A stretch of DNA of 64,000 bases from Thermoanaerobaculia bacterium (GTDB taxonomy: Bacteria; Acidobacteriota; Thermoanaerobaculia; Gp7-AA8), in the NCBI GenBank assembly GCA_034665065.1, contig JAXDGL010000008.1, forward strand, positions 319,412-383,411, given 5' to 3'. Made by a program: the position numbers and the translations under genes. The stretch's first letter is position 1; every line of letters begins with the position of its first letter. Below the pieces are notes generated by a model, which was given only the letters and a program-made list of their open reading frames with translations, searched no databases and was not told where the DNA came from. Positions 14,336 through 62,930 of the stretch are shown piece by piece.

Positions 14336-14371
14336 ACTTTTGATTCTCTTCTTCGGAGGGAAGGAGTCGTC

Positions 14372-38883: not shown

Positions 38884-39003
38884 GGCGTTCCTTTATGCGG
38901 CGCTCCCGGCGCTCTGGCATCGGCCACGTTTTCCTTTGCACACCGATAGCATGTCACACTCATAGCATGACTAGCAACAGGAACATGGACGCACACTCAA
39001 AGC

Positions 39004-39231: not shown

Positions 39232-39249
39232 CGAACCGATACTCCCTTT

Positions 39250-39516: not shown

Positions 39517-39656
39517 CCCGCTCGGATCAAGGCAAGCGAGGTTACCGGAGTCGTTAGGGTGAGTGCTAAAGTGTAGGCGAGCAAAGACACGAAAACCGGC
39601 TGGCAGGTCGGTCGTGCGAAGTTACGTGAGGGGCAATCGAGCGTGGAGATCTTGCC

Positions 39657-41367: not shown

Positions 41368-41586
41368 TAGCTCGCTATCCACGTCCTGTCCCTCCCATAT
41401 CGATTCCGCTTTCGGTGTGCGTTGGTCCCTGTTGGTCCAAGGCCGGTCCAGCCACCTGCGAGAGCGTGGCGTGACGCACCGACAGCAGCCGCCGTGTGTT
41501 ACGATCCTGTCGGGCGGTAGTGGCGACTGATCATCGTTCCGACGCCGGACAGCTCGCGCCCGGTCCGCCCGAAGTGCGTTCCTAGC

Positions 41587-42435: not shown

Positions 42436-42718
42436 AGGAGAGTAATTCATCGCCCCATCTAATCCCGCCCGCACAATTCTTGCCCCCATCGAAAGCAAAG
42501 AATCTTCTATCCGATATTGCTCGCGCAGAAATGGCGTGCTTCACTCAGCTCCACAAGCCGAAGCCTGTTTGCGGCGGGGGGAAAGGAGTTGATGTGCATG
42601 AGAAGACTGCAAGCCGTCCGCGTTCTGGTCACCGACGCGGAGAGCGGCCAGAAACACGAACGCCGTCTCGGGTAGTTGCTTGACCGGCAACCGAGACGGC
42701 GGGTGGTGATCCTGCGAT

Positions 42719-42795
42719 GCTCCCGTAGCTCAATCTGGACAGAGCGGCGGTCTACTAAACCGACGGTGTGGGTCCGAGTCCCACCGGGAGCGCCA
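42719..42795 (+). tRNA. tRNA-like gene with atypical anticodon (parses as ACU)
   Basis: Cloverleaf: acceptor GCTCCCG/CGGGAGC, D-arm GCTC-AATCTGGACA-GAGC, anticodon arm GCGGT-CTACTAA-ACCGA (G27·A43 mismatch), T-arm GTGGG-TCCGAGT-CCCAC, discriminator G, CCA. The short variable loop is inconsistent with Ser. Confidence 0.55.
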
Positions 42796-42906
42796 ATTCT
42801 ATTCGCACGCGGGCTGCCGGTCCAGCGGTAGCTCGATATTGTTACATCTTCAATCTTCACCCCTCAAGCATTGACGTTCTGACCCCTCAAGCATATATTT
42901 TCTTAC

Positions 42907-43791
42907 ATGAACAAACTCTCCAGTGACGCCCGCGCCCGCATCATCATGGCTCTGATCGAAGGCAACTCGATCGCGTCTACGTGCCGGATGACGGGCGCGG
43001 CAAAGATGACGGTGCTGAGTCTCATCCGCGAAGTCGGCACCGCATGCGCCGCGTTCCATGACGCGGTTGTGCGCGACCTCGCAACGGAGCGCGTGCAGGC
43101 CGACGAAGTATGGTCGTTCTGCGGCATGAAGCAGAAGAACGTCCCTGCCGACTTGCAAGAGACGGTCGGCATCGGCTCGATCTGGACGTGGACGGCGCTT
43201 GATGCGGACACGAAGCTGATGATTTCTTGGCTGGCGAGTAACCGTAGTGCGGAAGCTGCGAACGCGCTCCTCGCTGACCTCAAGTCCCGCACGTCGGCAT
43301 CGAACGAAATCCAAATCTTCTCGGATGGACTGGCGTAGTACATCGATGCGGTCCGGCAGAGCTTCGCACCCGGTGAAGCGAACCTTGGTCAAGTCGTGAA
43401 AACCTACGAAACCAGTAGTCCGCAGCCGGGCATGAATCCGAACAGTGCGGCGAGTAGGTATTCACCGGGACGCCTGCTCTCGATCGAGAAAACTGCACCT
43501 CTCGGCACGCCGGACATGAAGCACGTTTCGACCTCGTTCATGGAGCGGTTCAACCTCACGCTCCGCATGCAGAACCGGCGCTTCACGCGCCTGACGAATG
43601 GCTTCTCAAAGAAGTTCGAGAACCATTGCCACATGCTTGCAATGACGATGGTTTACTACAACTTCTGCCGGAAGCATCAGTCACTGAAGGGCCGGACGCC
43701 CGCGATGGCGGCGGGACTTACCGAGTATCGTTGGACGGCGGCGGATCTGCTGTCGCTGGAGATGTGGAGCGCGGCGGAAGCGGCAGCCTAG
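42907..43791 (+). mobile_element. IS1-family DDE transposase interrupted by a single in-frame TAG
   Basis: Recalled similarity to E. coli IS1 InsA HTH (ARIIMALIEGNSIASTCRMTG) and InsB (DEVWSFCGMKQKN; …IFSDGLA*YIDAV…; ERFNLTLRMQNRRFTRLTNGFSKKFENHCHMLAMTMVYYNF). ORFs 42907-43338 and 43396-43791 share a frame; the TAG at 43336-43338 is the only interruption. Confidence 0.75.
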
Positions 43792-44037
43792 CGCAGCCGC
43801 TTGCGCAGCTCACGCCGTATCTGATCCGCTATTTCGTCATCAGACTTCCCATGGTCTACGACGAACTCCACCAACGGATCACGGAGGATATGCACGTGCC
43901 ATTCGTTATTCGTTTGGCTGCCAACGATGCTCCATAGCGCGGTTACGCCGAATTCACCCTCGACAATAGGTTTCGCGATGGCCGTCAATTTGGATTGCAT
44001 GATTGTGGAGGGGTCGCTGGCCCCCGTTCCCTACCCC

Positions 44038-44176
44038 ATGTTACAACTTCCACTTCAAACTAGACCACTACCCAGATGTGTGCAAATGGACGGTTTCATC
44101 TGCGCCGATGTTGGTCCGCGACACAGGTGTATGCAGAGGAAGGGCTTATCTGCGAACATCTGCGTCATCTGCGGAT
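44038..44176. repeat. right terminal inverted repeat of the island
   Basis: CATGTTACAActtccactTCAAACTAGACCACTACCCAG…ATCTGCGAACATCTGCGTCATCTGCGG is the reverse complement of 38241-38334, with a ~50-nt indel. Confidence 0.7.
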
Positions 44177-47320: not shown

Positions 47321-47683
47321 ATGAATAGCCGTGATCTTGCCCGTTATCTCGTACTCGGTGGTGTCGTCGCCGGCCTGACCGCCGGAACCAATCTGCGTGC
47401 CGGCCAGACGAAGTCGTCCGCGCTTTCGCTCAACCAGTCGTCGCAGGCCGTGAAGATGGCCGACACTGCGAAGGCTGCTGACAAGCACGCCTGTAAAGGC
47501 CTCAACGGCTGTAAGGGCCAGGGCGCCGACGGCAAGAATGAATGCAAAGGCCAGGGTTCCTGCGCGTCGAAGGAGTACAAGCACGACTGCGCCGGCCAGA
47601 ACGCCTGCAAGGGCCAGGGCGCTGGCGGCAAGAACGAGTGCAAAGGCAAGGGCGGCTGCGCCGTTCCGCCGAAGGCGTCGTAG
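47321..47683 (+). CDS. Cys/Gly/Lys-rich secreted RiPP-precursor-like protein (bufferin-like, 8 Cys)
   Basis: Signal peptide, then two half-repeats CKGLNGCKGQGADGKNECKGQGSCA / CAGQNACKGQGAGGKNECKGKGGCA (8 Cys). Immediately upstream of a DUF692/MNIO gene. A rho-independent hairpin follows (CCGGGGACGGGCgaatGCCCGTCC). Confidence 0.65.
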   Translation: MNSRDLARYLVLGGVVAGLTAGTNLRAGQTKSSALSLNQSSQAVKMADTAKAADKHACKGLNGCKGQGADGKNECKGQGSCASKEYKHDCAGQNACKGQGAGGKNECKGKGGCAVPPKAS

Positions 47684-47721
47684 TAGTTCCGCTCCCGGGG
47701 ACGGGCGAATGCCCGTCCTTT

Positions 47722-47862
47722 GGGGTGGGGAGTGGGGGTGAAGTTAGAAGGGTGAAGAGTGAAGAGTGAAGAGTGAAGGGTGAAGAGTGAAAGTAAGACA
47801 ACTAATCCCTCTTCACACTTCACACTTCACTCTTCACACTTCACCCCTACTCCTCACCCCCA
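47722..47862. repeat. heptamer-array palindrome (GGGGAGT / GTGAAGA arrays)
   Basis: GGGGTGGGGAGTGGGGGTGAAG…GTGAAGA x5 … inverted TCTTCAC x4 …CCCCTACTCCTCACCCCCAC. Lies between the precursor gene and the MNIO gene. Confidence 0.75.
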
Positions 47863-47869
47863 CAAAACC

Positions 47870-48859
47870 ATGAATCGATTCCAACTTCCTGACCTTGGTA
47901 TCGGCATCGGCCTGAGGACCGTGCATTACGCGCACATCCTCGACAACGATCCGGCCATCGACTGGTTCGAAGCGCTCTCTGAGAACTATCTCGATACTGG
48001 TGGCCGTCCGCGTTACGTGCTCGAGAAAATCGCGGAGCGCTATCCGATCGTTCTGCACGGCGTGTCGATGTCGATCGGCGGAACCGATCCGCTCGACTTC
48101 GACTACCTTCGCAAACTGAAAGCGCTGGCACGTTCCGTCAATGCGCGCTGGATCTCCGATCATCTCTGCTGGACTGGAGTCAGCGGCCGCAACGTACACG
48201 ATCTGCTACCGATGCCTTACAACGAAGAGTCGCTTCGTCACACCGCGGAGCGCGTGCGGACCGTTTCCGAATTTCTGGAGACGCCGCTCGTCGTCGAGAA
48301 TCCATCGTCGTACGTCGAGTTCAAAGCATCGACGATGACGGAGTGGGATTTTCTCGCCGCGCTGGGCGAGCAGAGTGATTGCGGCTTGCTCCTCGACGTG
48401 AACAACATCTACGTCAGCTCGTTCAATCACAGTTTCGATCCGAATACCTACGTCGACGCGATCCCCGCCGACCGCGTCGTACAGGTTCATCTCGCCGGCC
48501 ACGCCAATCACGGTACGCACATCATCGACACGCACGACAACTTCGTGATCGACGAGGTGTGGCAGCTCTACGCACGCGCTAGCGCACGCATCGGCAATGT
48601 CTCGACGCTGATGGAGTGGGATGCGGATATCCCCGATTTCGAGACGGTGCATGCCGAGGCGCGGAAGGCGGAGGCGTTTCGTGAATCGGGGAGTGGGGGG
48701 TGGGGAGTGGGGAGTGGGAGAAAAGGCGATACGCTCCAAGCTGCGATCGCCGAGTCGCAAGTAGAAGACTCAGCGCCCGCCGAAACTCCGGTCCTCTTAT
48801 CCCCGAAACCCGACCACCGACATGCGACTCCCGCAACAGAGGCTCCCCTTGCCATCTGA
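47870..48859 (+). CDS. DUF692 / MNIO family enzyme (MbnB/BufB-like) with repeat-derived C-terminal extension
   Basis: MNRFQLPDLGIGIGLRTVHYAHIL…DWFE…ENY xylose-isomerase-like TIM-barrel signature of DUF692. The C-terminal ~55 aa (…ESGSGGWGVGSG…SPKPDHRHATPATEAP) is encoded by a GGGGAGT-family repeat (48686-48850). Confidence 0.85.
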   Translation: MNRFQLPDLGIGIGLRTVHYAHILDNDPAIDWFEALSENYLDTGGRPRYVLEKIAERYPIVLHGVSMSIGGTDPLDFDYLRKLKALARSVNARWISDHLCWTGVSGRNVHDLLPMPYNEESLRHTAERVRTVSEFLETPLVVENPSSYVEFKASTMTEWDFLAALGEQSDCGLLLDVNNIYVSSFNHSFDPNTYVDAIPADRVVQVHLAGHANHGTHIIDTHDNFVIDEVWQLYARASARIGNVSTLMEWDADIPDFETVHAEARKAEAFRESGSGGWGVGSGRKGDTLQAAIAESQVEDSAPAETPVLLSPKPDHRHATPATEAPLAI

Positions 48860-49661
48860 TCTCGCGCTGGCGCCGTTGCAGGAATGGATGCAGGCCGTCG
48901 TGACGCATCCCGGTGACGTGCACGACGCTGCCAAAGCGGCGGCGATCGATATCGACTCGATTGTGCTGCCGTCGAAAACGTTGCAGCCGCTGCAGCGCGT
49001 TGGCATCTATCACAGCATGTATTTGCTGCGGATGATCGAAGCGCTTGAGATCGATTACGCCGCGCTCGCGCATTTCATCGGCGGGCACGCGTTCGGGCAT
49101 CTCGTGTCCGACTACGTACAGCGCTTTCCATCCCGAAGCTGGACGTTGAACCGGCTCGGCGATCATCTCCCCGAGTTCATCGCCGGCTCGACGATGAAGC
49201 GGCGTGTGTTTCTCTCCGAGATGGCGCGGCTGGAGCTGGCGATGACGCATGTGTTCGAGGCGGAGGAAGCCGAAGCACTGCCGGCGGACGCGATCGGTGC
49301 GGTGCCGCCGGACAAGATCGAGACGCTTCGCTTCACGCCGATTCCCGGACTCCGGCTTCTGGAATTCGGGTACCAGATCAACGACGCGTTTCAGTCGTGG
49401 CGCGAAGAACGCGTCGTCACACCGGTGCGCGGGAAATCGTGGCTTGCCGTTCATCGACGCAACTACGCCGTCTTTCGCATGCCGCTCTCGAAGGAGGCGT
49501 TCGCATTTCTCGACGCACTCATTTCTGGCGAGACGATCGGTGGTGCGATCATGATGTTTCGCCGCCGGTTTCGGCGGATGCCAGAACAGCAGGAGCTTTT
49601 CGGCTGGTTCCGCGACTGGAGCGAGGCGGGACTCTTTGCAGCAATCGACGCCACCGGATAG
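48822..49661 (+). CDS. DUF2063-family protein (MbnC/BufC-like)
   Basis: 279 aa. Overlaps the MNIO 3' end. LQEWMQAVVTHPG… N-terminal region typical of DUF2063 partners of DUF692. Confidence 0.7.
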   Translation: MRLPQQRLPLPSDLALAPLQEWMQAVVTHPGDVHDAAKAAAIDIDSIVLPSKTLQPLQRVGIYHSMYLLRMIEALEIDYAALAHFIGGHAFGHLVSDYVQRFPSRSWTLNRLGDHLPEFIAGSTMKRRVFLSEMARLELAMTHVFEAEEAEALPADAIGAVPPDKIETLRFTPIPGLRLLEFGYQINDAFQSWREERVVTPVRGKSWLAVHRRNYAVFRMPLSKEAFAFLDALISGETIGGAIMMFRRRFRRMPEQQELFGWFRDWSEAGLFAAIDATG

Positions 49662-49670
49662 GAGAACGCG

Positions 49671-50147
49671 ATGATCGGCAAGCTGGTGCAGTGGTACGAC
49701 GTGGTCATGTCGCGCGGATTCGACAAGCTCCGCAGTCCTCTGCTGCTCGCGCTTCGTTTGATCTTCGGTTGGGGACTCTTCCAGACCGGTAAGGGCAAGC
49801 TGGAGAACATCGACCGTTTCACCGACTTCCTCACACATCTTCACATTCCAATGCCGGGTTTCAACGCGCACTTCGTGGCGACACTCGAATGCGCCGGCGG
49901 TTTGCTTCTGCTCATCGGCCTGGCTTCGCGACTGATCGCGATTCCTCTGACGATCAACTTCATCGTTGCGTACCTCACCGCCGATCACGAGGCGCTTGTG
50001 GGGTTTTTCAAAGATCAGGAAGCGTTCACGAGCGCGGCGCCATTTCTTTACCTGCTCGTTTCGCTGATCGTGCTCGCGTTTGGTCCCGGACTCTTCTCGC
50101 TCGACGCGCTCATCCGGCGCGTTTTTCTGCGCCGCCGGACGGCCTGA
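49671..50147 (+). CDS. DoxX-family membrane protein
   Basis: 4 TM helices (LLALRLIFGWGLFQTGKGKL…). Last gene of the operon. Confidence 0.8.
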   Translation: MIGKLVQWYDVVMSRGFDKLRSPLLLALRLIFGWGLFQTGKGKLENIDRFTDFLTHLHIPMPGFNAHFVATLECAGGLLLLIGLASRLIAIPLTINFIVAYLTADHEALVGFFKDQEAFTSAAPFLYLLVSLIVLAFGPGLFSLDALIRRVFLRRRTA

Positions 50148-50205
50148 GCGGCGACTCACCTATTGGCCGTCAAGCCGTTCGAGAACGTCCGGGCGCATTT
50201 CGGGC

Positions 50206-50691
50206 TCACTCGGCGTCGATGCAGAGGTTCGTGTTGGTGGTGACGGCAGCCGGTGCTTCCTCGATCAGCCGGCGTGCGCCGGCGAAGCGCCGCGCCCAAT
50301 GCGTGGCATTCAGCGAGGCGATGGCGACGCCGTGCCGCGCGGCGTGAACGAAATGCCCGCCGCCGATGTAAATGCCGACATGCGAAATTCCTCGAAGGCG
50401 GCCTCCGTGAAAGAAGACGAGATCGCCCGCTATCAGCTCCTCGCGTGCGACGGCGCATCCCTGCTTGAATTGGCGCGCCGCCGTTCTCGGCAACGCGACA
50501 CCGACGACGCGAAATGCGCGCTGCACGAGCGCTGAACAATCGAGTCCCTTCGGCGAATCGCCGCCGAGCCGGTACGGGAAGCCGGCAAACGTTCTGGCCA
50601 TCTCGACGACCATCGTCGTGGCCGGCGCGGCTCCGGTCGATTGCGCTGATGCAGTCGTCGTCACACCGCACGCCAGAAATAAAACCAGCAT
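50206..50691 (-). CDS. NlpC/P60 (C40) peptidase lipoprotein
   Basis: Internal start MLVLFLACG (lipobox). YRLGGDSPKGLDCSALVQRAF…GDLVFF…ISHVGIYIGGGHFVHA carries the Cys/His catalytic motif. Confidence 0.7.
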   Translation of the reverse strand: MLVLFLACGVTTTASAQSTGAAPATTMVVEMARTFAGFPYRLGGDSPKGLDCSALVQRAFRVVGVALPRTAARQFKQGCAVAREELIAGDLVFFHGGRLRGISHVGIYIGGGHFVHAARHGVAIASLNATHWARRFAGARRLIEEAPAAVTTNTNLCIDAE

Positions 50692-50694
50692 CAG

Positions 50695-51099
50695 CACGAG
50701 CGATGAAGATTGCCTGCTTCTCTCACGCGGGCGGCTGACACAACGATGGCGGCACTCGCCGCAGTTGAATAGATGCGCGGTCACGAGACTCCCCGCTCCG
50801 GTGAACACGAGAACGGTCTCCGCCGGCCCGTGCAGAAGCAACCTGCTTCCGATGATCGCGGCCAGCCCGGCGCCGATGCCGATCCGCGGAAGCAATGCGC
50901 CATTGCGGCGGAACGACGCGCGTATGGCGGAGAGGCCGATGAGCAGGGAAATGCCGGCGATCCATGTCTCGGCGGTTTCGCTGTGCTTCGCGGCCGCCGG
51001 AAGCGAAACGAGAATCAACGGCGTGGCCAGACAGTGAATGGCGCAGAGGATGGATACTGCAGCTCCGGCGCGGTCGATCCTCGTCTGCGATGTTTGCAC
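50695..51099 (-). CDS. MerC-like membrane domain (in-frame with the NlpC/P60 gene, no intervening stop)
   Basis: ILCAIHCLATPLIL…FNCGECRHRC. Paired Cys motifs at both ends of a 4-TM segment, as recalled for MerC mercury transporters. Confidence 0.4.
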
Positions 51100-51415
51100 T
51101 CAGTCCACCTCCGGATTCGAGTGGCAGACGGTATTGGACCAGCGCTCGTCTTCGCCAGCGATTCTCTGCCTGTGCGCAAAAAGCATCGATGAGAGGTCGT
51201 TCCGGTTCAATCAGCGGTACGAGCAAGCTCCCGGCTCCGTCCGCTTAGCCGCTGGTCTCGCAAGACGGACGTGATACTGCATGCAGCACGATGCTACAGC
51301 GAAGTACCGCGGCCCGAGTGGCAGTCGTTCCGGTGTGATTGCCGTTCACCGGGTGAATGGTTCCATTCATTGAAAAACGCTCTTACCACGCGGACGGCGC
51401 GGGCATCGTGCGCGG

Positions 51416-53605
51416 ATGTACCAATCGACGCGACGTTTCCTCCCTCTCACTCTTCTCACCTTTCTTCTCGCCGGATCACTTTTTGCGCAGACCTCCGGGA
51501 CTCTGACCGGCAAAGTTACGACGGGCGCCGGCGCACCGGTCGCCAGTGTGGACGTTCAGCTCGTCGATCTGCGACGCAGCACGACGGCTGACACATCCGG
51601 CGCGTATCGATTCGACGCCGTTCCGCCCGGCCGGCACCTCGTGCAGGTGGTCAGCGCACGCGCCGGCACTTCGGTGCGCCAGATCGATACCTCTGGCGCG
51701 AACACAACGCTTGACGTCGTCCTCGACCTCGCCGTTCACCGCGAGGAAATCGTCGTCAGTGCCACCGGCGGTCCACAGATGGCCTCGGAAGCTGCGCAAC
51801 CGGTGGACGTCATCTCCGGCACCGACCTTCAGGCGCGACAGCAGCCGACCCTCGGCGAAACGCTGGCCAATGAGCCTGGCGTTTCCTCAACCGGATTCGT
51901 CCCAGGCTCCAGCCGTCCGCTCATCCGTGGCCTCGGCGGCGACCGCATCCGCATTCTGGAGGATGGCATCGGCACCGGCGACGCGTCGAACGTCAGCCAG
52001 GATCACAACGTCACGATCGATCCGGTCAACGCCCGCAGCATCGAGATCGTGCGCGGACCGGCCACGCTTCTCTACGGGAGCAATGCCATCGGCGGCATCG
52101 TCAACGTTCTCGATGATCGCGTTCCCACCAGCGCGGCGAAAGGGATCAACGGCTCGGTAGACCTGCGCGGCACCTCGAATGCGCATGAGCGCAACGGCGA
52201 GATCTCGTTGGACGGCGGCAGCGGCATGTTCGCCTGGCACGGCAATTACGGACAGCGGAAGACCGGAGACTACGACACGCCGATCGGCAAGCTGTTCAAC
52301 AGCGATATCGACGCGAAGAACGGTGCCCTCGGCGCGTCGCTCGTCGGCGCCAAAGGCTTTCTTGGGCTCGCCTACAGCGGTTACGACACGAACTACGGCG
52401 TCTCGAATGCCGGACCGGGCGTTGAGCCCGAGGAAGTCGTGCGCATCGACATGCGAAACCGGAAGTGGGACCTGCGCTCCGAGCTCGAAGGCGGCGGTGG
52501 TCCGTTCAGCCGCTACCGCTTCCGCTTCGGACGGTCGGATTACACGCACTCCGAGGTCGCCGACGGCAATACGAACATCACGTTTCACAACAAGTTCAAT
52601 GAAGGCCGCCTCGAGGCGACGCAGCAGGCGTTTGGCGCGCTCACAGGCTCGATGGGTGTGCAATTCTCGAAACGCGATTTCTTTACCACCGGCGAAGAGC
52701 TTCTTCCGCCGACCCTGACGAAGAACATGGCAGCCTTCATCTTCGAGGAGGCGGGGAAGGGCACGTGGCGTTTGCAGTTCGGCGGGCGCTTCGAGAATCA
52801 GAAGGTGAATGTTGCGTCGGACGAACTGCCGGACCGCAGGTTCAACGGTCTGTCAGGCTCGGGCGCGCTTGTATACGTGCCGAACGCCGGCTACTCGGCG
52901 TCGTTGGCGCTGTCGCACTCGGTTCGCGCCCCGGTAGCGGAGGAGCTGTATTTCCGCGGCGCGCATGAGGCGACGTTCCAGTTTGAGATCGGCGATCCGA
53001 ACCTTCGCAAAGAAACGTCGAACGGCCTCGATCTTTCCTTTCACAAGCGTACCGGCATGGTGACGGGGACGGTCAGCGTCTACGCGAATCGCTACAACGG
53101 CTACATCTTCCAGGATCCCACCGGCGACGAAGAGGAAGGCTTTCCGGTATTTGTCTTCGCGCAGCGCGATGCGAAGTTCAACGGTGCGGAAGGTCACGCC
53201 GACATCTCGCTCTATCACACGGATCCGAATCATCTGGCGCTGGAGATCACCGGCGACTACGTTCACGCCGGCCTGTCGAATGGCGGAGGTCCGATCCCGT
53301 TCATTCCGCCTGCTCACCTCGGCGTCGGCCTGCGATTTCAGGGAGAAGCGCTCTATTTGCTGGCCGAGGCGCGGCATGCGGCGAAACAGGATCGCGTAGC
53401 GGACTTCGAGACGACCACCCCCGGGTACACGCTCCTGAACGCGGCGATCGGCTACCGGTTCTTCGCCGGCAATACCGTCAGCGATGTCATGTTGCGCGGA
53501 AGCAATCTGACCGACAAGCTGGCCCGCAACCACGTCAATCCGCTCAAGGACGCAGTGCCGCTGCCGGGCCGCGACATCACGTTGTCATATCGACTCACGT
53601 TCTGA
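51416..53605 (+). CDS. TonB-dependent receptor with N-terminal carboxypeptidase-regulatory-like domain
   Basis: Signal peptide. CarbopepD_reg (GTLTGKVTTGAGAPVASVDVQLVD…), plug (IEIVRGPATLLYGSNAIGGIVNV), barrel ending LSYRLTF. Confidence 0.85.
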   Translation: MYQSTRRFLPLTLLTFLLAGSLFAQTSGTLTGKVTTGAGAPVASVDVQLVDLRRSTTADTSGAYRFDAVPPGRHLVQVVSARAGTSVRQIDTSGANTTLDVVLDLAVHREEIVVSATGGPQMASEAAQPVDVISGTDLQARQQPTLGETLANEPGVSSTGFVPGSSRPLIRGLGGDRIRILEDGIGTGDASNVSQDHNVTIDPVNARSIEIVRGPATLLYGSNAIGGIVNVLDDRVPTSAAKGINGSVDLRGTSNAHERNGEISLDGGSGMFAWHGNYGQRKTGDYDTPIGKLFNSDIDAKNGALGASLVGAKGFLGLAYSGYDTNYGVSNAGPGVEPEEVVRIDMRNRKWDLRSELEGGGGPFSRYRFRFGRSDYTHSEVADGNTNITFHNKFNEGRLEATQQAFGALTGSMGVQFSKRDFFTTGEELLPPTLTKNMAAFIFEEAGKGTWRLQFGGRFENQKVNVASDELPDRRFNGLSGSGALVYVPNAGYSASLALSHSVRAPVAEELYFRGAHEATFQFEIGDPNLRKETSNGLDLSFHKRTGMVTGTVSVYANRYNGYIFQDPTGDEEEGFPVFVFAQRDAKFNGAEGHADISLYHTDPNHLALEITGDYVHAGLSNGGGPIPFIPPAHLGVGLRFQGEALYLLAEARHAAKQDRVADFETTTPGYTLLNAAIGYRFFAGNTVSDVMLRGSNLTDKLARNHVNPLKDAVPLPGRDITLSYRLTF

Positions 53606-53608
53606 GCG

Positions 53609-53923
53609 ATGGCCGAGGTCCAGGGCGTCTTCGAGCAAGCCGTGTTGATCGCGGTGGCGACCCTGGACCGCGAGTCGTCGGGTGCAACGATCGTTGCCGC
53701 GGTGCGCGAGCGGCTGCAACGCAACGTGCACTCCGGCTCGGTACACAGCACGTTGCAACGGCTGGAACAGAAGCAGTTGATCACGTCGCGGAAGGGCGCG
53801 ATGCCCGACCGCGGCGGCCGGCCAAGACGTTATTTCGCGGTCAACGAAGAGGGCATTCGCGCGTTGCGCCGCGCGAAGGTGGAGATCCAGCGAGCGTGGG
53901 GCGATTTCGTCGCGGAGCGATAA
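53609..53923 (+). CDS. PadR-family transcriptional regulator
   Basis: IAVATLDRESSGATIVAAVRERL…GSVHSTLQRLEQKQLITS…RRYFAVNEEGIRAL matches the PadR winged-helix pattern. Confidence 0.6.
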   Translation: MAEVQGVFEQAVLIAVATLDRESSGATIVAAVRERLQRNVHSGSVHSTLQRLEQKQLITSRKGAMPDRGGRPRRYFAVNEEGIRALRRAKVEIQRAWGDFVAER

Positions 53924-54171
53924 GGGATCGCGCGCGGACTCAACTTCCGGTGGGTCTCAGGATCGGAGCGGGGTAGCTCGGAACAATCGTCGCAGTAACA
54001 ATCGTGAGCCGTGATTCAACGCCTGGCGAATCAGCATCCGATCGAAGCGATGGAAATCTCGGCGGTCTCGTTCTCGACTTCTTCGAGCGGCTTTTATCAC
54101 GCCGGCATTCTGACAAATCAAACCCGGCGCGATGGGGACTTTGTGCTCAAACTACCGGCTTTCGTCGGGCA

Positions 54172-54951
54172 TCACAGCCGCAGCAGCCGCTCGCGCAGCA
54201 GCCGCGAATGAAAGCGGCTCGTTTGCAGCTCCTGTCCGTTGGATAGCAGCAGCACGAAGGTTCCGCCGGGCATCGGCGTGGCTTTGGTGATCGTGTTGAT
54301 GTTCGCCAGCGTGCCGCGGCTCAGGCGGATGAACTCTTCGCGATCGAGCCGCGCTTCGAGATCCTTCAAACGATAGGAGATCGTGTGCTTCACGCCGCGA
54401 ATGGTCGTCAGATGCAGCAGCTCGCCGTCGGCGATCACGGAGGCGACCTCATTGACCGGCACGAGCACGATCTCGTTCTTGCGGCGGACCGGAATGCGCC
54501 GTAACGGACCCGCGCTCGTGGCCTCGAACGCGCTTGCGGCTGTGCGGACATTCTTCACGGCCGCTGCGCGGGCATCATCGCGATCGAGGCGGTCGATGGC
54601 GCGGCTCACCGTTTCGCGCAGGCGCGCGGCATCGACGGGCTTGAGGAGATAATCGACAGCATTCAGCTCGAAGGCGCGCACGGCGTATTCGTCGTAGGCT
54701 GTTACGAACGCGATCATCGGCATCAAGCCGCGCTTGATGAGGCGCACCACGCCGATGCCGTCGACTTCCGGCATCTGCAGATCGAGTAGCGCCAGATCGG
54801 GTTTCTCGCGCTCGATCAACTCGACCGCAGCCGCTCCGTCCGTGGCCTCTCCGACGATCTCGACGTCGTGGAAGCGCCGCAGCATCGACAGCAACAGAGA
54901 TCGCGCCGGCCTCTCATCATCGGCGACGATCACGCGCAACCGGTCTCTCAT
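54172..54951 (-). CDS. LytTR-family response regulator
   Basis: Receiver domain (VIVADDERPARSLL…DLALLDLQMPEVDG) plus LytTR DNA-binding domain (…LHLTTIRGVKHTISYRLKDLEARL…FIRLSRGTLANI). Confidence 0.9.
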   Translation of the reverse strand: MRDRLRVIVADDERPARSLLLSMLRRFHDVEIVGEATDGAAAVELIEREKPDLALLDLQMPEVDGIGVVRLIKRGLMPMIAFVTAYDEYAVRAFELNAVDYLLKPVDAARLRETVSRAIDRLDRDDARAAAVKNVRTAASAFEATSAGPLRRIPVRRKNEIVLVPVNEVASVIADGELLHLTTIRGVKHTISYRLKDLEARLDREEFIRLSRGTLANINTITKATPMPGGTFVLLLSNGQELQTSRFHSRLLRERLLRL

Positions 54952-56750
54952 GCGCGCCTCGCGATCGGGAGGAGGATCTCGGCGCGCGTTTCGTCAGCCG
55001 TAGCGACGAGCGTCAGACTGGCGGCATCGCCGTACTGATGGCGCAGGCGCGCATCGAGGTTCGAGAGCCCTACGCCCTGCTGCCGGCCGCGGATGATGTC
55101 CGACTCGGTCGCCCGAGCGCCGCTGTTGCGGACAGTAATCGCCAGGATGTCGCCGTCGGAGCGGCTCTCGATGCTGACGCGCCCGCCGCTTCTGCAGTTG
55201 GCGATGCCGTGCTTGATGGCGTTCTCGACGAGCGGCTGGATCATGAGCGCCGGCACGCGGATTCCCCGCAGCTCGCCGGGGACGTCGATGTCGATGCGCA
55301 GTCTTTCTTCGAAGCGTGCGCGCTCGATCTCGAGATAGGCGCTGACCAGGTCGATCTCGTCGCCGAGCGTGGTGGCGGCATCCGCGGAACGGAGGACACC
55401 GCGCAGCAACGCCGTCAGCTTCATCAGCGTTCCGTGGGCGCGCGTTGGCGAAGTCTGGATGAGGTAGCCGATCGTGTTCATGGCGTTGAAGAGGAAGTGC
55501 GGATTCACCTGCGCGCGAAGCGCTCGCAACTCGGCTTCCGTGGCCAGCCTGCTTTGTTGATAGCGCTCGCGCTCGAGCCGGATGGTGTCGATGCGGCGCG
55601 CCGCCAGCAGTGCCATATTCTCGAGCATGGCCAGATCGTCGGAGAGCAAACGACGGCCCCCGGCAAGCGGACCAATCACGAGCGCATAACGCGGCGGCTC
55701 CGTCGTCCGAATGGACATCACGTCGTCACCGGCATCGAGACCCTCTTCGATCCATCGCATCTCATCGGCTGCCAGCGGCGACCGCAATGCATCGGCGAGA
55801 GCATTCATCACCGCAGGCGGCTCTTCCAGCGCACCCAGGGATTGATCGAAATCCTCGCGAAGGCGTTTGTAGTCGACGCGATGCAAGACGACGCGATCGA
55901 CGATCCACGCGGCTCCTCGGCACAACGGTGGATAGAGGAGGGCCAGCCCGGCCCAGAGAATTACGGAGACGCCGACCGCGACCGGATCGCTGCGGAAGTC
56001 ATGCTGCGCGAGGAGTGGCACTTCCACGCCGACGTACAGCCCCGAGGCGATGGCGACGAGCGCGAAGAGGGCGATGGCGCGCTTCAGAAAAAGATCCGCC
56101 AGCGCGAATCGGAAGTCCTGGTAGAGGATCGCGAAAATCAATGGGATCGATGCGTGATGTCCCGCCAGCTCGATGAACCACGATTCCGTTGCACCTTCGC
56201 GGTGACTGAGATGCAAGGCAGAGACAGCGAAGACCGCCAGCGCGACGATCGACCAGCCGCGCGCCGAACCGGTTCGGCGGCGTGTCAGCAGAAAGAGCGG
56301 AATCGTCAGCGCGAGGTAGAACCAGGTGAGTGTCTGCAGAGCGACAACCGAAGGCACTGGCGCGCCGCTGGAAGCCGCTCGGAACATGAGCGTTTCGGCA
56401 ACGGTGCTGATCGCATACGAACCCCAGACGATCGCGGCCGCGGTTCGGCGATGACGCGCCTCCGACTGCGATCGGAGGACGGTGTGGACGACGACAGCAG
56501 GCAGAAACCCGAGGGCGCTGTACGCCGTCGCGATCAGAAAAGGGGATGCGTCGCCGCCCGCGAAGTCGCGAATTCCGAATGCGGCGAGGCCGCTGACGTT
56601 CCAGATGAGTCCGAGGATTGCTGTGACGAGCGGAAGGCGATCGTCGCCCACGCGCCGCCGCACGACCAGCGCGAAGAGCATCGCGTAGAGCGCTGCGCCG
56701 GTCAGGAAGCCAATCAGGTGCACCAGTGCGGCGACGTTGTGGGGCGGCAT
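54948..56750 (-). CDS. LytS-type sensor histidine kinase
   Basis: Multi-TM N-terminus. H-box NPHFLFNAMNTI (His_kinase/LytS type). HATPase (ENAIKHG…GVGLSNL). 4-bp overlap with the RR gene. Confidence 0.85.
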   Translation of the reverse strand: MPPHNVAALVHLIGFLTGAALYAMLFALVVRRRVGDDRLPLVTAILGLIWNVSGLAAFGIRDFAGGDASPFLIATAYSALGFLPAVVVHTVLRSQSEARHRRTAAAIVWGSYAISTVAETLMFRAASSGAPVPSVVALQTLTWFYLALTIPLFLLTRRRTGSARGWSIVALAVFAVSALHLSHREGATESWFIELAGHHASIPLIFAILYQDFRFALADLFLKRAIALFALVAIASGLYVGVEVPLLAQHDFRSDPVAVGVSVILWAGLALLYPPLCRGAAWIVDRVVLHRVDYKRLREDFDQSLGALEEPPAVMNALADALRSPLAADEMRWIEEGLDAGDDVMSIRTTEPPRYALVIGPLAGGRRLLSDDLAMLENMALLAARRIDTIRLERERYQQSRLATEAELRALRAQVNPHFLFNAMNTIGYLIQTSPTRAHGTLMKLTALLRGVLRSADAATTLGDEIDLVSAYLEIERARFEERLRIDIDVPGELRGIRVPALMIQPLVENAIKHGIANCRSGGRVSIESRSDGDILAITVRNSGARATESDIIRGRQQGVGLSNLDARLRHQYGDAASLTLVATADETRAEILLPIARRA

Positions 56751-56835
56751 TCGAGTTGATTATGACGAGAAGGTTCCGACCTGCAAGGCGAGGCCGGTGA
56801 ATGGTTGGTTTCGGGTGATGAATGGTTGGATCTTG

Positions 56836-56998
56836 CGGTTGCGCGGTTGCGCGGTTGCGCGGTTGCGCGGTTGTGAGGTTACGGAGTTGCGAGGTTTCTG
56901 AGTAGATCCTTCGCAGCAACCCAGCAACCCAGCAACCCGGCACCTCAGCACCTCAGCAACCAACAACTCAGCAACCGCGCGAGACCGCAACCCACTGC
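56836..56998. repeat. imperfect palindrome of GGTTGCGC octamer arrays
   Basis: GGTTGCGC x4 + GGTTGTGAGG… then inverted CAGCAACC x3, CAGCACCT x2…. Confidence 0.7.
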
Positions 56999-57027
56999 AT
57001 TCTGTTATCGTCGCGCTCTCTCCTCGA

Positions 57028-57125
57028 GGAGGCGAATGGGGTCTGGTGGCTCCCGCGGTCTTCAAAACCGTTGTTTCGGCGCGGAAGCGTCGAAGGGTCG
57101 GTTCGATTCCGACGCGCCTCCGCCA
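57028..57125 (+). tRNA. selC: tRNA-Sec (selenocysteine, anticodon UCA)
   Basis: 98 nt. Acceptor GGAGGCG(A)/GCGCCTCC, 6-bp D-stem with 4-nt loop (GGGGTC-TGGT-GGCTCC), anticodon loop CTTCAAA (UCA), long variable arm, T-arm GTCGG-TTCGATT-CCGAC, discriminator G, CCA. Confidence 0.8.
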
Positions 57126-57527: not shown

Positions 57528-60500
57528 ATGAAACGAGCTCTTCCCTTTCTTCTTTTGTCGCTTCTTCTCGTCGGATCGCTCGATGCCGCGCCAGGTCGCC
57601 GCCACAAGAAAGTGGCGCAGTCCGAGGTTACGGTGGAGGCGGAGGTGGAGGCAGGCAAGGCGCTTCGTGCCGCCGTTGGCGAGAGGGAGAGGAAGTCGAA
57701 TGAGGATACGGGTACCATCGTAGCCAAGCCGGTGCCGATTCCGTTTGGACCCCCGATTGAGCTGCAACTGAAGCGCGCTGACAGCCGCAAGTTCGATCTG
57801 CGCTCCCTCCCAAGGACGCAGCCGGTACAACAGGAGCGCGCGGAGCTTCCGGAGCCGGCGTTCCACCCTGTCACCGTCCAGGCGACTGGTGTTCCGCCGA
57901 CGGCCAATCTGCCCGCTGTGCCTCTTCCATCGGCTCCGGCGCCACCGCCGATCGCAGTCTACGAGGGGCTCGATCGTTTCAATTGGGGAGCCGGCAGTCC
58001 TCCCGATACGAATGGTGACGTCGGTCCGAACAACTACATTCAGACCGTCAACTCCTCGATTGGCGTGTACCGGAAGTCCGACGGCTTCCAGCAGGCGGCA
58101 TTCACGTTCAACACGTTCATGAGCCAGGGCAACTTCGGCAATCTGTGTGACACCAACAATTTCGGCGATCCGGTCGTCCTCTACGACACATTCGAAGACC
58201 GCTGGATCATCACGGACTTCGCGTTTGTGCTCGACGGCGGCGGCAATGTGGTCGCTCCTGCCTACCAATGTTTCGCTGCCTCGATGACTGGCGATCCGGT
58301 CGCCGGCGGGTGGAACTTCTACTCCATCCAGATCTCGGATGCTCTCAACGATTATCCGAAGTTGGGCATCTGGCCGGACGGTCTTTACATGTCCGCGAAC
58401 ATGTTCACCTTCGGCGCCGGCTCCGCGTTCACGAGCGCCCGCGCCTGGGCCTTCAACAAGGCGCAGATGTATGCCGGAAGCCCGACCGTGAAGGTGGTCT
58501 CCTTCAACATTCCCGGCGGCGATTTCACGGTCATCCCCAGCAACGCACGCTTGCAGACAGGCACGCCGCCACCCGGGCGTCCCAATCTGTTCACCTCCAG
58601 CTGGCTCTTTACGAACGCTCTGACCGTCTATCAGTTCCACGTTGACTGGAACAGCATTTCGCAGTCGACGTTCACGGGCCCGGATACACCCATTGCCGCT
58701 ACGAGCTGGCCGAACGCTGCCGTCGCGAACGCCGCGCAGCCGGGTACGGCTACGCTCCTCGATGTCCTTCAGATCCGCGCCATGGTGCAGAACCAGTACA
58801 CGAACTTCGGCGGCACCGAGTCGTTGTGGATCCCTCATACGGTTCGCCGAGGAAATACGAGTGGATTCGCTGCGCCGCGCTGGTACCAGGTGAACGTCAC
58901 CGGCGGCGCGGTCAACCCTGCTATCCCACAAGCGGCGACGTGGGATCCGGACAATGCCAACGTCGTCAATCGCTTCATGCCCAGTCTGGCGCTTGACCGG
59001 GCCGGGAACATGGCCATGGGCTACAGCACCTCGAGTGGGACGGTCTTTCCCTCGATCATGTATGCGGGCCGGCTGGCAGCCGATGCGGTCAATACCTTCA
59101 GCCAGACCGAGCAGACGTTCTTTACCGGCACCGCTTCACAAACAGGTACGACTCGATGGGGTGACTACAGCGCTATGACGCTCGACCCGGACGGTTGTAC
59201 GTTCTGGTACACGACCGAGTATGCAAATCCGGCGGACCAGACCTTTAATCATCGCTGGCTGACCAAGTTCGGCTCGATCGGAGCATTCCCCGGATGCACC
59301 CCGGTTGGAGCGGGTGGTACGGTTTCCGGTACGGTGACCGCCGCGGCCGGCGGCGCGCCAATCAGCGGCGTCACGGTGCAGTTGGGCGCGGGGCGTTCGA
59401 CGACCACTGACGGCTCGGGCAATTACTCGTTCACCAGCATTCCCGCGGGCACCTACCCGACGATAACCGCGAGCAAACCAGGATTCGTCTCAGGATCCGC
59501 GTCGTCGATCGTCGTCACTGACGCCGGCACCACGACGCAGAACTTTTCGCTGGCCGCTGCTGCGTCGAGCTCCTGCCTCACCGACACCACACAGTCCGAT
59601 TTCTTGACTGGCGTTACTTCCGCAACCGTCGACATCAACACATCTCCCGGCGACGTCACATTGTCCAATGCACCGACCTCTGACCAGGCGAACACCGCCG
59701 GCACGACAACCGGAACCGGCTTTGGCACCCCTGCCTGGACCGGTCAGACCTTCATCGCGGGAGTCAGCGGTCTACTCGTGAAAGCCGATGGCCAGCTCTT
59801 CTGCAACGGTTGCGGCGCGACACCTCCGGACCTCACGCTTTCCCTCCGCGCGACTTCGGCTGGTTTGCCGACAGGCGCTGATCTCGCCACCGCGACGGTC
59901 CTCGGTGCGCAGTTTGCCAGCGGTGCGTCCGTCCTCTTCACGGCGACCTTCGGCTCGCCGGTCTCGATCACTTCCGGAACGCAATACGCTCTGGTCCTGC
60001 GGCCGGTCTCCGCTCCGGCGGGCTCCGGCTATTTCTGGATTCGCTCTTCGCCGAGCACGTACACCAACGGTTCGCGTGTTCTGTCGGCCGACAGCGGCGG
60101 CACATGGTCCGCCGATACCACGCGCGATTACAACTTCAGAACGTACGTTCAGGTCGGCTATGCAGCAGCAGGCAACTTCGTGTCGTCTCCCAAGGATTCC
60201 AATCCGGGAGGCGGACTGACGCCGATCTGGTCGACGTTCTCATGGAACGGTTCCACTCCCGCGAATACATCGTTGCAGTTCCAGCTCGCCGGATCGAATA
60301 ACGTCAACGGACCGTTCAACTTCGTCGGACCGGACGGCACCGCGGGAACATTCTTCACGACCTCACCGGCGCAGCTCTCGCCCCAGTTCTACAACTTCCG
60401 GTTCCTCGAGTACAAGGCATTCCTTGCCACCACCGATCCCAACGTCACGCCCACGCTCAGCGACGCCACCACCTGCTTCAACGACGTCGATTGCAGCAGT

Positions 60501-62930
60501 ACGGCGGCTACGATCACGCCAACACCGGCAGCGGTCTGCACAAACTCGACCGGCAATACCGCCGCTGGTCCGGCTGGCATGATCTCTTACGCATGGGGCA
60601 TTGCCAACGGCACGATCACCTCCGCGACGAACATGCAGAGCATCACCTATACGGCCGGTGCGTCTGGTAGCGTCACGTTGAATCTCACCGTCACGGCAGC
60701 AAACGGATGCATCATCTCCGGCTCGACGCCGGTTACGATCAACCCTATACCGGCCACACCAACGATCACCGCGGGCGGGCCGACGGCATTCTGCAGCCCC
60801 GGCAGCGTCACGCTCACATCGAGCAGCGCTTCGGGTAACCAGTGGTACCTCAACGGAAACCCGATCGGCGGCGCCACGAACAACACCTATGTCGCCACCG
60901 CATCGGGTAACTACACGACCGTTGTCACAGCGCTCGGCTGCAGTAGCGCGGCCTCGAATTCCATCGCTGTGACCGTCAACCCGATCCCGGCCACGCCCAC
61001 GATCACTCCCGGAGGAGCGACGACGTTCTGCGCCGGCGGAAGCGTGACGCTGACGTCGAGCAGCGCAAGCGGCAATCAGTGGCTGCTCAACGGCAATCCG
61101 ATCGGCGGTGCCACGAACACGACGTACAACGCGACGGCCAGCGGCAACTACACGGTCACCGTGACGACGAGCGGCTGCACCAGCGCGCCATCATCGGCAA
61201 CGACCGTGACCGTGAACCCGATCCCGGCCACGCCCACGATCACTCCCGGAGGAGCGACGACGTTCTGCGCCGGCGGAAGCGTGACGCTGACGTCGAGCAG
61301 CGCAAGCGGCAATCAGTGGCGGCTCAACGGCAATCCGATCGGCGGTGCCACGAACACGACGTACAACGCGACGGCCAGCGGCAACTACACGGTCACCGTG
61401 ACGACGAGCGGCTGCACCAGCGCTCCGTCTTCGGTCACGACCGTGACGGTCAACCCGCTTCCGGCCACACCGACGATTACACCCGGAGGCCCGACGACGT
61501 TCTGCGCCGGTGGCAGCGTGACGCTGACCTCTAGTAGCGCGTCCGGCAATCAGTGGTATCTGAACGGCAACCCGATCGGCGGTGCCACGAATACAACGTA
61601 CTCCGCCACCGCCTCAGGCAGCTACAAGGTCGTCGTGACGGCAAGCGGATGCAGCAGCGCTCCATCGGCGGCCACGAATGTAACTGTCAATCCCAACCCC
61701 AACGCCACGATCACGGCGCCGGCCAGCGCGGCAACAGGGTCGACCGGCAACATCGCCTCCGTCGCCAACGCCGGAGTCGGCGCCACCTATAACTGGAGCA
61801 TCACCAACGGCACGATCACGGCGGGCACGGGCACCAACAGCATCACCTTCACTGCCGGCGCGGTGGGAACGTTGACGCTCAACGTCACCGTGACTACGAG
61901 CGCCGGTTGCAGCGACGCCAAATCGGCCAACGTCAACGTCGTCGTTCCACCCGTGACCGTAACCTCGGTGTCGCCGACCGGCGGCACGATCGCAGGCGGC
62001 TCGGCAGTGACGATCAACGGGACAGGCTTCGCCAGCGGTGCGAGTGTCACCTTCGGAGGAGCGACGGCGACGAATGTCGCTGTTGTCAGCGCCATCAAGA
62101 TCACGGCCAGGACTCCAGCCCACGCGCTTGGCGCCGTCAACGTGACGGTGACGAACGTCGATACGACGAGCGGCACGCTCGTCGCCGGCTATCTCTACAA
62201 GGCCCAGCAATTTGATCCGAACAACGACGGCACGATCACCTCGTCGGACATTTTCTATCTTGTGAACTACCTCTTCCTTGGCGGTCCCGCGCCGAGCGCT
62301 GCGGCGGGTGTGTTGTCAGGTGATGCGAACGGCGATGGAGTTGTCAACGCGTCCGATATTTTCTACCTCGTGAACTATCTCTTCCTCGGCGGCCCGCGGC
62401 CTAACGCGGTTCCGACTCTGACGCCTTCCGCTCTTTCGGCGGGCACGACGGAGACGGGCGCGATCGAGGGCTCGATCACGCTTGGCAAACCGTTGCAGCG
62501 CAACGGCCGCTACGTCGTCCCGGTCGTGATGTCGATCGTCCCGGGCTCGATCACCCCGCAGTCGATGGCGTTGCGCGTTCACTTCGACGGGGAAGGAAAC
62601 GTCGGTACTGTGTCCGTTCGTAAAGCAGGTGCGGCGAATGATCTTGCAGTGCCGTTTGAGATCGCGCGCAACGTGGACAACGATCTGTCTTACCTTGTTT
62701 CCTATGGCGGGCTGAATCTTGGACAAAGCCGTTCGGCGGTCGTCGCCGAAATCGAGATCGATTCGGTGGACGGAGCCGTAGGTCTCAGCATCGATCCGCA
62801 GTTGACAATGATCGGCGATCAAGCCGGCCAGGAATCGGCGACGGTTGCGAATGGAAAGCTTCAGGTCAAGGGCGCATCGATTGGCAAGACCCTCATGAAA
62901 CCGAATGCGCATGGAAACGAAGTGAATTAA
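57528..62930 (+). CDS. giant secreted multi-domain protein with Ig-like tandem repeats, a dockerin module and a C-terminal cohesin-like domain
   Basis: Signal peptide MKRALPFLLLSLLLVGSLDA. 5 near-identical ~80-aa repeats (PIPATPTITPGGATTFCAGGSVTLTSSSASGNQW.LNGNPIGGATNTTY.ATASGNYTVTVTTSGC). Dockerin duplicated segment DPNNDGTITSSDIFYLVNYLFLGG / DANGDGVVNASDIFYLVNYLFLGG. Confidence 0.8.
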   Translation: MKRALPFLLLSLLLVGSLDAAPGRRHKKVAQSEVTVEAEVEAGKALRAAVGERERKSNEDTGTIVAKPVPIPFGPPIELQLKRADSRKFDLRSLPRTQPVQQERAELPEPAFHPVTVQATGVPPTANLPAVPLPSAPAPPPIAVYEGLDRFNWGAGSPPDTNGDVGPNNYIQTVNSSIGVYRKSDGFQQAAFTFNTFMSQGNFGNLCDTNNFGDPVVLYDTFEDRWIITDFAFVLDGGGNVVAPAYQCFAASMTGDPVAGGWNFYSIQISDALNDYPKLGIWPDGLYMSANMFTFGAGSAFTSARAWAFNKAQMYAGSPTVKVVSFNIPGGDFTVIPSNARLQTGTPPPGRPNLFTSSWLFTNALTVYQFHVDWNSISQSTFTGPDTPIAATSWPNAAVANAAQPGTATLLDVLQIRAMVQNQYTNFGGTESLWIPHTVRRGNTSGFAAPRWYQVNVTGGAVNPAIPQAATWDPDNANVVNRFMPSLALDRAGNMAMGYSTSSGTVFPSIMYAGRLAADAVNTFSQTEQTFFTGTASQTGTTRWGDYSAMTLDPDGCTFWYTTEYANPADQTFNHRWLTKFGSIGAFPGCTPVGAGGTVSGTVTAAAGGAPISGVTVQLGAGRSTTTDGSGNYSFTSIPAGTYPTITASKPGFVSGSASSIVVTDAGTTTQNFSLAAAASSSCLTDTTQSDFLTGVTSATVDINTSPGDVTLSNAPTSDQANTAGTTTGTGFGTPAWTGQTFIAGVSGLLVKADGQLFCNGCGATPPDLTLSLRATSAGLPTGADLATATVLGAQFASGASVLFTATFGSPVSITSGTQYALVLRPVSAPAGSGYFWIRSSPSTYTNGSRVLSADSGGTWSADTTRDYNFRTYVQVGYAAAGNFVSSPKDSNPGGGLTPIWSTFSWNGSTPANTSLQFQLAGSNNVNGPFNFVGPDGTAGTFFTTSPAQLSPQFYNFRFLEYKAFLATTDPNVTPTLSDATTCFNDVDCSSTAATITPTPAAVCTNSTGNTAAGPAGMISYAWGIANGTITSATNMQSITYTAGASGSVTLNLTVTAANGCIISGSTPVTINPIPATPTITAGGPTAFCSPGSVTLTSSSASGNQWYLNGNPIGGATNNTYVATASGNYTTVVTALGCSSAASNSIAVTVNPIPATPTITPGGATTFCAGGSVTLTSSSASGNQWLLNGNPIGGATNTTYNATASGNYTVTVTTSGCTSAPSSATTVTVNPIPATPTITPGGATTFCAGGSVTLTSSSASGNQWRLNGNPIGGATNTTYNATASGNYTVTVTTSGCTSAPSSVTTVTVNPLPATPTITPGGPTTFCAGGSVTLTSSSASGNQWYLNGNPIGGATNTTYSATASGSYKVVVTASGCSSAPSAATNVTVNPNPNATITAPASAATGSTGNIASVANAGVGATYNWSITNGTITAGTGTNSITFTAGAVGTLTLNVTVTTSAGCSDAKSANVNVVVPPVTVTSVSPTGGTIAGGSAVTINGTGFASGASVTFGGATATNVAVVSAIKITARTPAHALGAVNVTVTNVDTTSGTLVAGYLYKAQQFDPNNDGTITSSDIFYLVNYLFLGGPAPSAAAGVLSGDANGDGVVNASDIFYLVNYLFLGGPRPNAVPTLTPSALSAGTTETGAIEGSITLGKPLQRNGRYVVPVVMSIVPGSITPQSMALRVHFDGEGNVGTVSVRKAGAANDLAVPFEIARNVDNDLSYLVSYGGLNLGQSRSAVVAEIEIDSVDGAVGLSIDPQLTMIGDQAGQESATVANGKLQVKGASIGKTLMKPNAHGNEVN

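Follow-up and report, generated by a model that had tools for sequence, protein, structure and literature searches.

Does the 98-nt tRNA gene at 57,028 of this 64,000-nt stretch of DNA from an uncultured Thermoanaerobaculia bacterium (the whole stretch is called the window below) encode a selenocysteine tRNA, and does the DNA around it bear the marks of UGA recoding and of island integration that a sequence-only reading had led us to expect? We find that the gene is very probably a functional selC. Its neighbourhood shows neither split selenoprotein genes nor an integrated island.

ARAGORN reports two tRNA genes in the window, one of which is selC: a tRNA-SeC(tca) at exactly 57028-57125 of the forward strand, where the sequence-only reading had placed it. 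Infernal aligns the Rfam model RF01852 (tRNA-Sec) to 57028-57121 over its full length (1-91) with 71.1 bits (E 1.5e-12). The gathering score of the family is 47 bits, so the covariance model accepts the Sec fold. The two detectors are independent and agree on coordinates and identity, which supports the assignment; for a 39-nt pattern drawn from the 5' half of the gene, 0 matches are expected in shuffles. The minimum free energy (MFE) structure is the expected cloverleaf, at -48.6 kcal/mol, with the following parts:

57028-57125 (+): selC, tRNA-Sec(UCA), 98 nt, CCA encoded (ARAGORN, RF01852, MFE fold, covariation)
57028-57034 / 57115-57121 (+): acceptor stem GGAGGCG/CGCCUCC, 7 Watson-Crick pairs (MFE fold)
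57035 and 57114 (+): eighth acceptor layer, A8.G87, non-Watson-Crick (sequence, MFE fold)
within selC (+): acceptor/D linker A9 U10, 2 nt, normal (MFE fold)
57038-57053 (+): D arm, stem GGGGUC/GGCUCC of 6 bp, loop UGGU of 4 nt (MFE fold)
57055-57071 (+): anticodon arm, 5-bp stem topped by a C.U non-pair (MFE fold)
57060-57066 (+): anticodon loop CUUCAAA, 7 nt with U33 (sequence)
57062-57064 (+): anticodon UCA, which reads UGA (ARAGORN, RF01852; tca in all 41 Acidobacteriota loci listed)
57074-57095 (+): variable arm, 9 bp and a GGAA tetraloop (MFE fold)
57097-57113 (+): T arm, stem GUCGG/CCGAC of 5 bp (MFE fold)
57122 (+): G73 discriminator (sequence)
57123-57125 (+): encoded CCA (sequence)

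Most hallmarks named beforehand are therefore in place: the UCA anticodon within CTTCAAA (57060-57066), the 6-bp D stem (GGGGUC/GGCUCC) with its 4-nt loop UGGU, the long variable arm (9 bp and GGAA) and the discriminator G at 57122. The "extended acceptor" stands only by length: each strand has 8 residues, but 7 layers alone form Watson-Crick pairs and layer 8 is A.G. The acceptor/T branch counts 13 layers, namely 7 Watson-Crick layers, one non-Watson-Crick layer and the 5-bp T stem. Given the 8 acceptor residues and the normal 2-nt linker, the geometry is of the 8/5 type by length with one layer mismatched, and not a shortened branch.

We then compared the gene with its homologues. One genome per bacterial species was scanned with the 5'-half pattern, which gave at least 120 loci, and 119 tRNAs (87 distinct) from these loci and the window were aligned. 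Across the 87 distinct homologues listed, pairing stands at 92-100% in four stems, those of the acceptor (7 bp), the D arm (6 bp), the anticodon arm (5 bp) and the T arm (5 bp), and the many pair types found per position amount to clear covariation. All D-stem pairs are 97-100% paired, with covariation at three of the six; the five T-stem pairs are 100% paired and covary; in the variable arm, pairing is 93-99% for the six outer pairs and lower for the inner ones. Both non-Watson-Crick layers of the window gene are common to most of these 87 homologues, in several phyla: layer 8:87 is Watson-Crick in only 10% of them, and layer 27:45, at the top of the anticodon stem, in 3%. Among the matches listed, G73 is invariant in all 104 tRNAs with a readable 3' end, and 93 of the 104 encode CCA.

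At many non-acidobacterial loci, tblastn with SelD, SelA and SelB probes detects selD, selA or selB adjoining this same tRNA. These sel-clustered genes belong to Coriobacteriia, Actinomycetota, Acetobacteraceae and Clostridia, and their eighth layer is non-Watson-Crick too (A:C, U:C, G:G); the window tRNA thus has a bona fide selC architecture. Closer to home, the gene is 93-98/98 identical in at least 38 species-representative genomes of Thermoanaerobaculia/Acidobacteriota, and Thermoanaerobaculia bacterium BP_51 (locus L104) carries an identical copy (98/98). ARAGORN calls tRNA-SeC(tca) in 41/41 Acidobacteriota loci listed. The few substitutions among relatives are pair-preserving (C72U, giving G.U; U48-A67 changed to G.U) or fall at unpaired positions. 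Where a match was reported, most loci resemble the window only from about 57003 to 57125, and the DNA on either side is unalignable. A conserved tRNA, a mostly conserved TGnTATCGT box ahead of it and unalignable flanks together indicate a gene under purifying selection. Altogether, from its sequence, 57028-57125 is very probably a functional selC (tRNA-Sec, anticodon UCA) of this uncultured bacterium.

The similarity to relatives begins exactly at 57003 because of that upstream box:

57003-57011 (+): putative extended -10 element TGTTATCGT (conserved upstream box)

Its TG lies at 57003-57004 and its TATCGT at 57006-57011; the box ends 16 nt ahead of the mature 5' end of selC. A TATCGT-like hexamer occurs 14-29 nt upstream of selC in 29/39 Thermoanaerobaculia loci listed, with TGn before it in 24 of those 29; only 29 such motifs exist in 322 kb of the selC strand. 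A consensus sigma-70 scan, which requires a -35 element, called no promoter for selC, and a consensus scan found no canonical terminator. We infer that selC would form a transcription unit by itself, with a predicted start near 57018 and a leader of some 10 nt, and a promoter of its own would explain how its neighbours can change freely.

We propose the following course for the tRNA, the steps of transcription, charging, SelA and SelB being taken from established knowledge of the bacterial Sec pathway. selC would be transcribed from its own extended -10 promoter and the leader of about 10 nt trimmed by RNase P. SerRS, recognising the long variable arm and G73, would charge the tRNA with serine, and SelA would convert Ser-tRNA-Sec to Sec-tRNA-Sec with selenophosphate from SelD. 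SelB would then bring Sec-tRNA-Sec to a UGA followed by a SECIS hairpin in the few selenoprotein mRNAs presumably encoded elsewhere in the genome.

The partners of the tRNA were sought in the DNA at hand. Pfam detects no selA, selB or selD among the 40 window proteins, none lies in the 10 kb beyond either window end, and tblastn finds none at the 41 Acidobacteriota selC loci listed (8-kb loci). The tblastn probes were the E. coli SelA, SelB and SelD sequences; they are validated by strong matches beside selC in other phyla. In a SelA profile search of 5.8 billion proteins, the best 120 matches listed were Coriobacteriia-type proteins only and did not reach the Thermoanaerobaculia lineage.

The sequence-only reading had warned that selenoprotein genes might be mis-split at UGA by gene callers. 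No such case occurs within the window. We scanned for same-frame coding segments joined by TGA, with codon-position GC filters, and obtained four hits, three of which are antisense shadows of real genes. The sole coding-strand junction, at 53603, was considered as a split selenoprotein and rejected: a TonB-dependent receptor gene ends there at its normal stop codon, and a PadR gene comes next. Seven further TGA junctions in 299 kb of related loci were likewise discarded as plain adjacent genes without redox-motif context. There is no candidate for a selenoprotein gene with in-frame UGA and SECIS in the window, its +/-10 kb extensions or the 299 kb of related loci. Nor is the aldehyde:ferredoxin oxidoreductase (AOR), suggested earlier as a possible split partner, interrupted:

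33870-36002: AOR gene, intact ORF of 710 aa, then MoeA (Pfam)

This ORF contains a heptamer array, GAGTGGG x10.6 at 34820-34893, between AFOR_N and AFOR_C, and stays open across it.

With no selA, selB, selD or selenoprotein gene in the DNA searched, the pathway itself is one that we infer for this genome. Surveys describe tRNA-Sec as "specific to selenoprotein-containing genomes" and as a "perfect marker" (PMC5330540), and selenoproteins are known in Acidobacteria (PMC1794560); we found no literature linking Thermoanaerobaculia with selenocysteine. It is reasonable to suppose that the organism decodes UGA as Sec somewhere in its genome, and selenoprotein genes there are plausible. Annotators of this metagenome-assembled genome (MAG) would be well advised to choose a gene finder that allows for selenoproteins, since gene calls with an internal UGA may stop short elsewhere in it.

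Three other readings of the tRNA deserve weighing. Allo-tRNAs with UCA are tRNA-Sec-like serine tRNAs that would act as opal suppressors or regulatory RNAs and not carry Sec. Covariance models built for tRNA-Sec are known to pick them up wrongly. Both kinds of tRNA have a long variable arm, G73 and a long D stem capped by a tetraloop, and allo-tRNAs are frequent in Acidobacteria (PMC5389517); the lack of any sel gene near the window selC would suit them as well. Their acceptor/T branch is, however, of the 8/4 or 9/3 type, whereas the T stem here has 5 bp, fully paired and covarying over 87 sequences, with 8 residues between it and G73. Moreover, the same architecture and 5' half recur in selC genes of sel operons in other phyla, and the anticodon is UCA at every locus of the class scanned, while those of allo-tRNAs vary. 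Allo-tRNAs also associate with toxin-antitoxin or transposon loci (PMC5389517). We consider this reading very improbable. A SelC*-type tRNA-Cys, a mimic of tRNA-Sec that inserts cysteine at UGA, could likewise have UCA and resemble tRNA-Sec (PMC5389517), but SelC* tRNAs combine U73 with a modified 8/4 fold, and G73 already contradicts the idea here, as does the 5-bp T stem. They have been reported in Firmicutes, Thermodesulfobacteria, Nitrospirae and Proteobacteria, a list without Acidobacteria (PMC5389517), and the chance that this is one of them is vanishingly small.

A relic is the third possibility: the Sec trait would have been lost in the lineage, leaving selC decaying or idle. Neither Sec machinery nor a selenoprotein gene appears in the DNA searched, which comprises about 84 kb from this genome and 299 kb from related loci, and two layers of the stems are non-Watson-Crick. 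These same layers are nevertheless common in selC genes of intact sel operons, and a decaying gene would sit badly with 93-100% identity in at least 38 species despite unalignable flanks, with a conserved promoter box and with few, pair-preserving substitutions. Surveys, besides, did not find tRNA-Sec in genomes lacking selenoproteins (PMC5330540). A relic is therefore very unlikely, and a functional tRNA-Sec remains our preferred reading. An equally slim chance attaches to a more speculative idea, namely that the Thermoanaerobaculia selC, unlinked to selA/selB/selD, with its non-Watson-Crick layer 8 and its own mini-promoter, might work with diverged or non-canonical partners or be an orphan UGA decoder; UGA recoding here would then depart from the E. 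coli scheme.

The surroundings of selC bear on the second expectation. LEE and PAI-I of pathogenic E. coli are integrated at selC through P4-like integrases, and the sequence-only reading had called selC a hotspot of this kind. In the window, selC stands alone, with a divergent LytS/LytTR operon on one side and the gene for a giant surface protein on the other. Its neighbours are:

50148-57002: 6.85-kb block absent from several relatives (blastn/tblastn synteny: L104, L088, L116, L012, L053, L017, L021)
50206-51099 (-): MerC-NlpC/P60 gene, in the 6.85-kb block (Pfam)
51416-53605 (+): TonB-dependent receptor gene, in the 6.85-kb block (Pfam)
53609-53923 (+): PadR gene, in the 6.85-kb block (Pfam)
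54172-54951 (-): LytTR response regulator gene, in the 6.85-kb block (Pfam)
54948-56750 (-): LytS-type histidine kinase gene, in the 6.85-kb block (Pfam)
56835-56976: repeat hairpin between the divergent histidine-kinase gene and selC, in the 6.85-kb block (TRF, repeat finder, DNA fold)
57528-62930 (+): giant surface protein, Ig_7/PKD/TIG/CarboxypepD_reg/Dockerin_1 (Pfam, gene calls)

In its classical sense, the hotspot claim finds no support here. Pfam finds no integrase domain in the genes flanking selC; with up to 3 mismatches tolerated, the 26-nt 3' end of the gene matches the window at a single site, which leaves no att repeat; and GC is 0.63-0.65 across 50-57 kb, like the rest of the window. 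The gene was also said to abut a dockerin/cohesin locus and a repeat hairpin. Dockerin domain and hairpin are both there, but Pfam detects no cohesin domain. The giant surface protein measures 1800-1851 aa (start at 57375 in the longest ORF and at 57528 in the public gene call) and follows selC also in L012, L036, L053 and L088, by synteny. Within its gene, a 237-nt unit repeated x3.9 (83% matches) at 60739-61666 reflects a tandem series of Ig-like (Ig_7/PKD) domains. According to Pfam, the remaining genes of the window have ordinary metabolic and regulatory functions.

On the 5' side, relatives differ in what precedes selC. In L104, L088 and L116, 35-123 nt separate the tRNA gene from the preceding DoxX gene, a member of an MbnB/DUF2063/DoxX operon; the DoxX-selC gap is 1.1 kb in L012, 2.6 kb in L053 and 6.85 kb in the window. 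The succession of kinase gene, hairpin and selC is common to the window, L017 and L021, at 81% nucleotide identity, with the hairpin at the same place. In L012 and L088, remnants of the right arm of the hairpin persist immediately ahead of the promoter box, which favours deletion there over insertion in the window; comparison of the sequences thus suggests that the 6.85-kb block may have been deleted in L012/L088. The changes beside selC are best read as ordinary reshuffling next to a conserved tRNA gene and not as an island inserted by an integrase.

The operon upstream of the block merits a description of its own. It spans 47321-50147 (+) and comprises a small ORF, an MNIO enzyme gene (MbnB/TglH/ChrH), a gene for a DUF2063 protein and DoxX; in several relatives it directly abuts selC. 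The small ORF contains a 33-nt repeat (11 aa, with Cys) x4.4 at 47513-47654, and a tandem-array hairpin separates this precursor-like ORF from the MNIO enzyme gene. We take the operon to resemble the gig/bufferin-type metal-binding RiPP operons. Elsewhere in the window, a cobalamin riboswitch (RF00174, 113 bits, 14168-14340, +) stands immediately upstream of another TonB-dependent receptor gene (14372-16204), the standard BtuB-type arrangement. A tRNA-Ala(GGC) gene lies 0.1-14 kb from selC in several Acidobacteriota genomes (L035, L077, L094, L112); in this genome it is found about 13.8 kb downstream of selC, just outside the window (L125 18002-18077).

The hairpin beside selC is one of a family. 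Its left array is (GCGGTTGC) x7.8 at 56835-56896 and its right, inverted one (CAGCAACC) x8 at 56914-56976; as DNA it folds at -46.7 kcal/mol (z -4.8). All such inverted tandem arrays consist of a 7-9-nt unit repeated x3-13, a short loop and the repeated reverse-complement unit, the unit differing at every site (GGTTGCNN, AATGTTG, CAGTGAT, GAAGAGT, GGTCGTA and others). The window holds five, at 56835-56976, 7255-7525, 8409-8600, 13300-13384 and 47736-47848, and further ones occur among loci L006-L107. Four of the five begin 1-64 nt after a stop codon; that of selC sits in a divergent promoter region. A TRF-based detector counts 19 arrays in 280 kb of Thermoanaerobaculia loci and 3 in the window (5 by eye), against none in the 564 kb of selC loci that belong to other phyla: the arrays are a lineage-specific class. 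We found no description of such tandem-array hairpins in the literature.

The window proteins are also encoded on contig Ga0467037_0000007 (453 kb) of JGI metagenome 3300044807, a second assembly of this population. Over about 38 kb matched, the two sequences differ by a single base substitution (window 7258); all their other differences are unit-copy changes in three arrays, at 56834/56835, at about 47817 and at 7255-7318 (window compared with L001, L124 and L125). The changes amount to one GCGGTTGC octamer, two heptamers (14 nt) and one 32-nt unit. Two Logan contigs, L002 and L003, break off within the octamer array. Either the arrays are hypervariable or they are unstable in assembly.

The other tRNA gene is of a different nature. 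At 42719-42795 (+) lies a class I tRNA with anticodon ACU, which ARAGORN names tRNA-Ser(act) and the Rfam tRNA model scores at 59.4 bits. Its body is Arg-like (A20, C35, U36). Among 62 metagenomic tRNAs sharing its D arm and anticodon stem, 59 are Arg(UCU), 2 Arg(ACG) and 1 Lys(CUU), and none of the 62 has ACU. Its T loop, UCCGAGU, is atypical and 27:43 is G.A. It belongs to a stretch of lower GC, 38232-44176, which measures about 5.9 kb here and about 1.2 kb in L104, and a weak rve_3 ORF adjoins it. The gene is probably a copy of tRNA-Arg, mutated or irregular, that sits on a mobile segment; were it functional, AGY Ser codons would be misread as Arg.

The selC of the window is a routine gene of an already known kind. 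It brings nothing new biologically, since tRNA-Sec is textbook matter, the identical sequence is present in a public MAG and acidobacterial selenoproteins are known. Two observations may be mildly useful: a stand-alone selC, extended -10 box included, that is conserved throughout the class, and the eighth acceptor layer that is routinely non-Watson-Crick in a large group of tRNA-Sec.

We close by setting the locus beside known systems. Like the bacterial tRNA-Sec of RF01852, of which E. coli selC is the prototype, the tRNA has CUUCAAA with UCA, a 6-bp D stem with a 4-nt loop, a 5-bp T stem, a very long variable arm, 8 residues per acceptor strand, G73 and an encoded CCA. In E. coli selC the eighth acceptor layer and the top layer of the anticodon stem are both paired, whereas in the window gene layer 8 is A.G and the sixth (top) anticodon-stem layer C.U. 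Unlike in many bacteria, neither selA nor selB adjoins selC in this genome. As with selC-targeted islands, gene content beside selC differs between close relatives (the 6.85-kb block), but the variable block is on the 5' side here, the 3' neighbour is syntenic, and integrase, att repeat and GC deviation are all missing. Among variants of tRNA-Sec, Cloacimonetes have a 7/5 branch, and an 8/4 branch with a bulge occurs in Actinobacteria and Chloroflexi (PMC5330540, PMC5389517). The window selC likewise has only 12 Watson-Crick pairs (7+5), yet it differs from these 12-bp acceptor/T variants in having 8 acceptor residues and a normal 2-nt linker. With allo-tRNAs and SelC* it shares a tRNA-Sec-like D arm and a long variable arm, and with allo-tRNAs the phylum as well; it is set apart by a T stem of 5 bp (not 4 or 3), a fixed UCA and class-wide conservation, and from SelC* also by G73 in place of U73.
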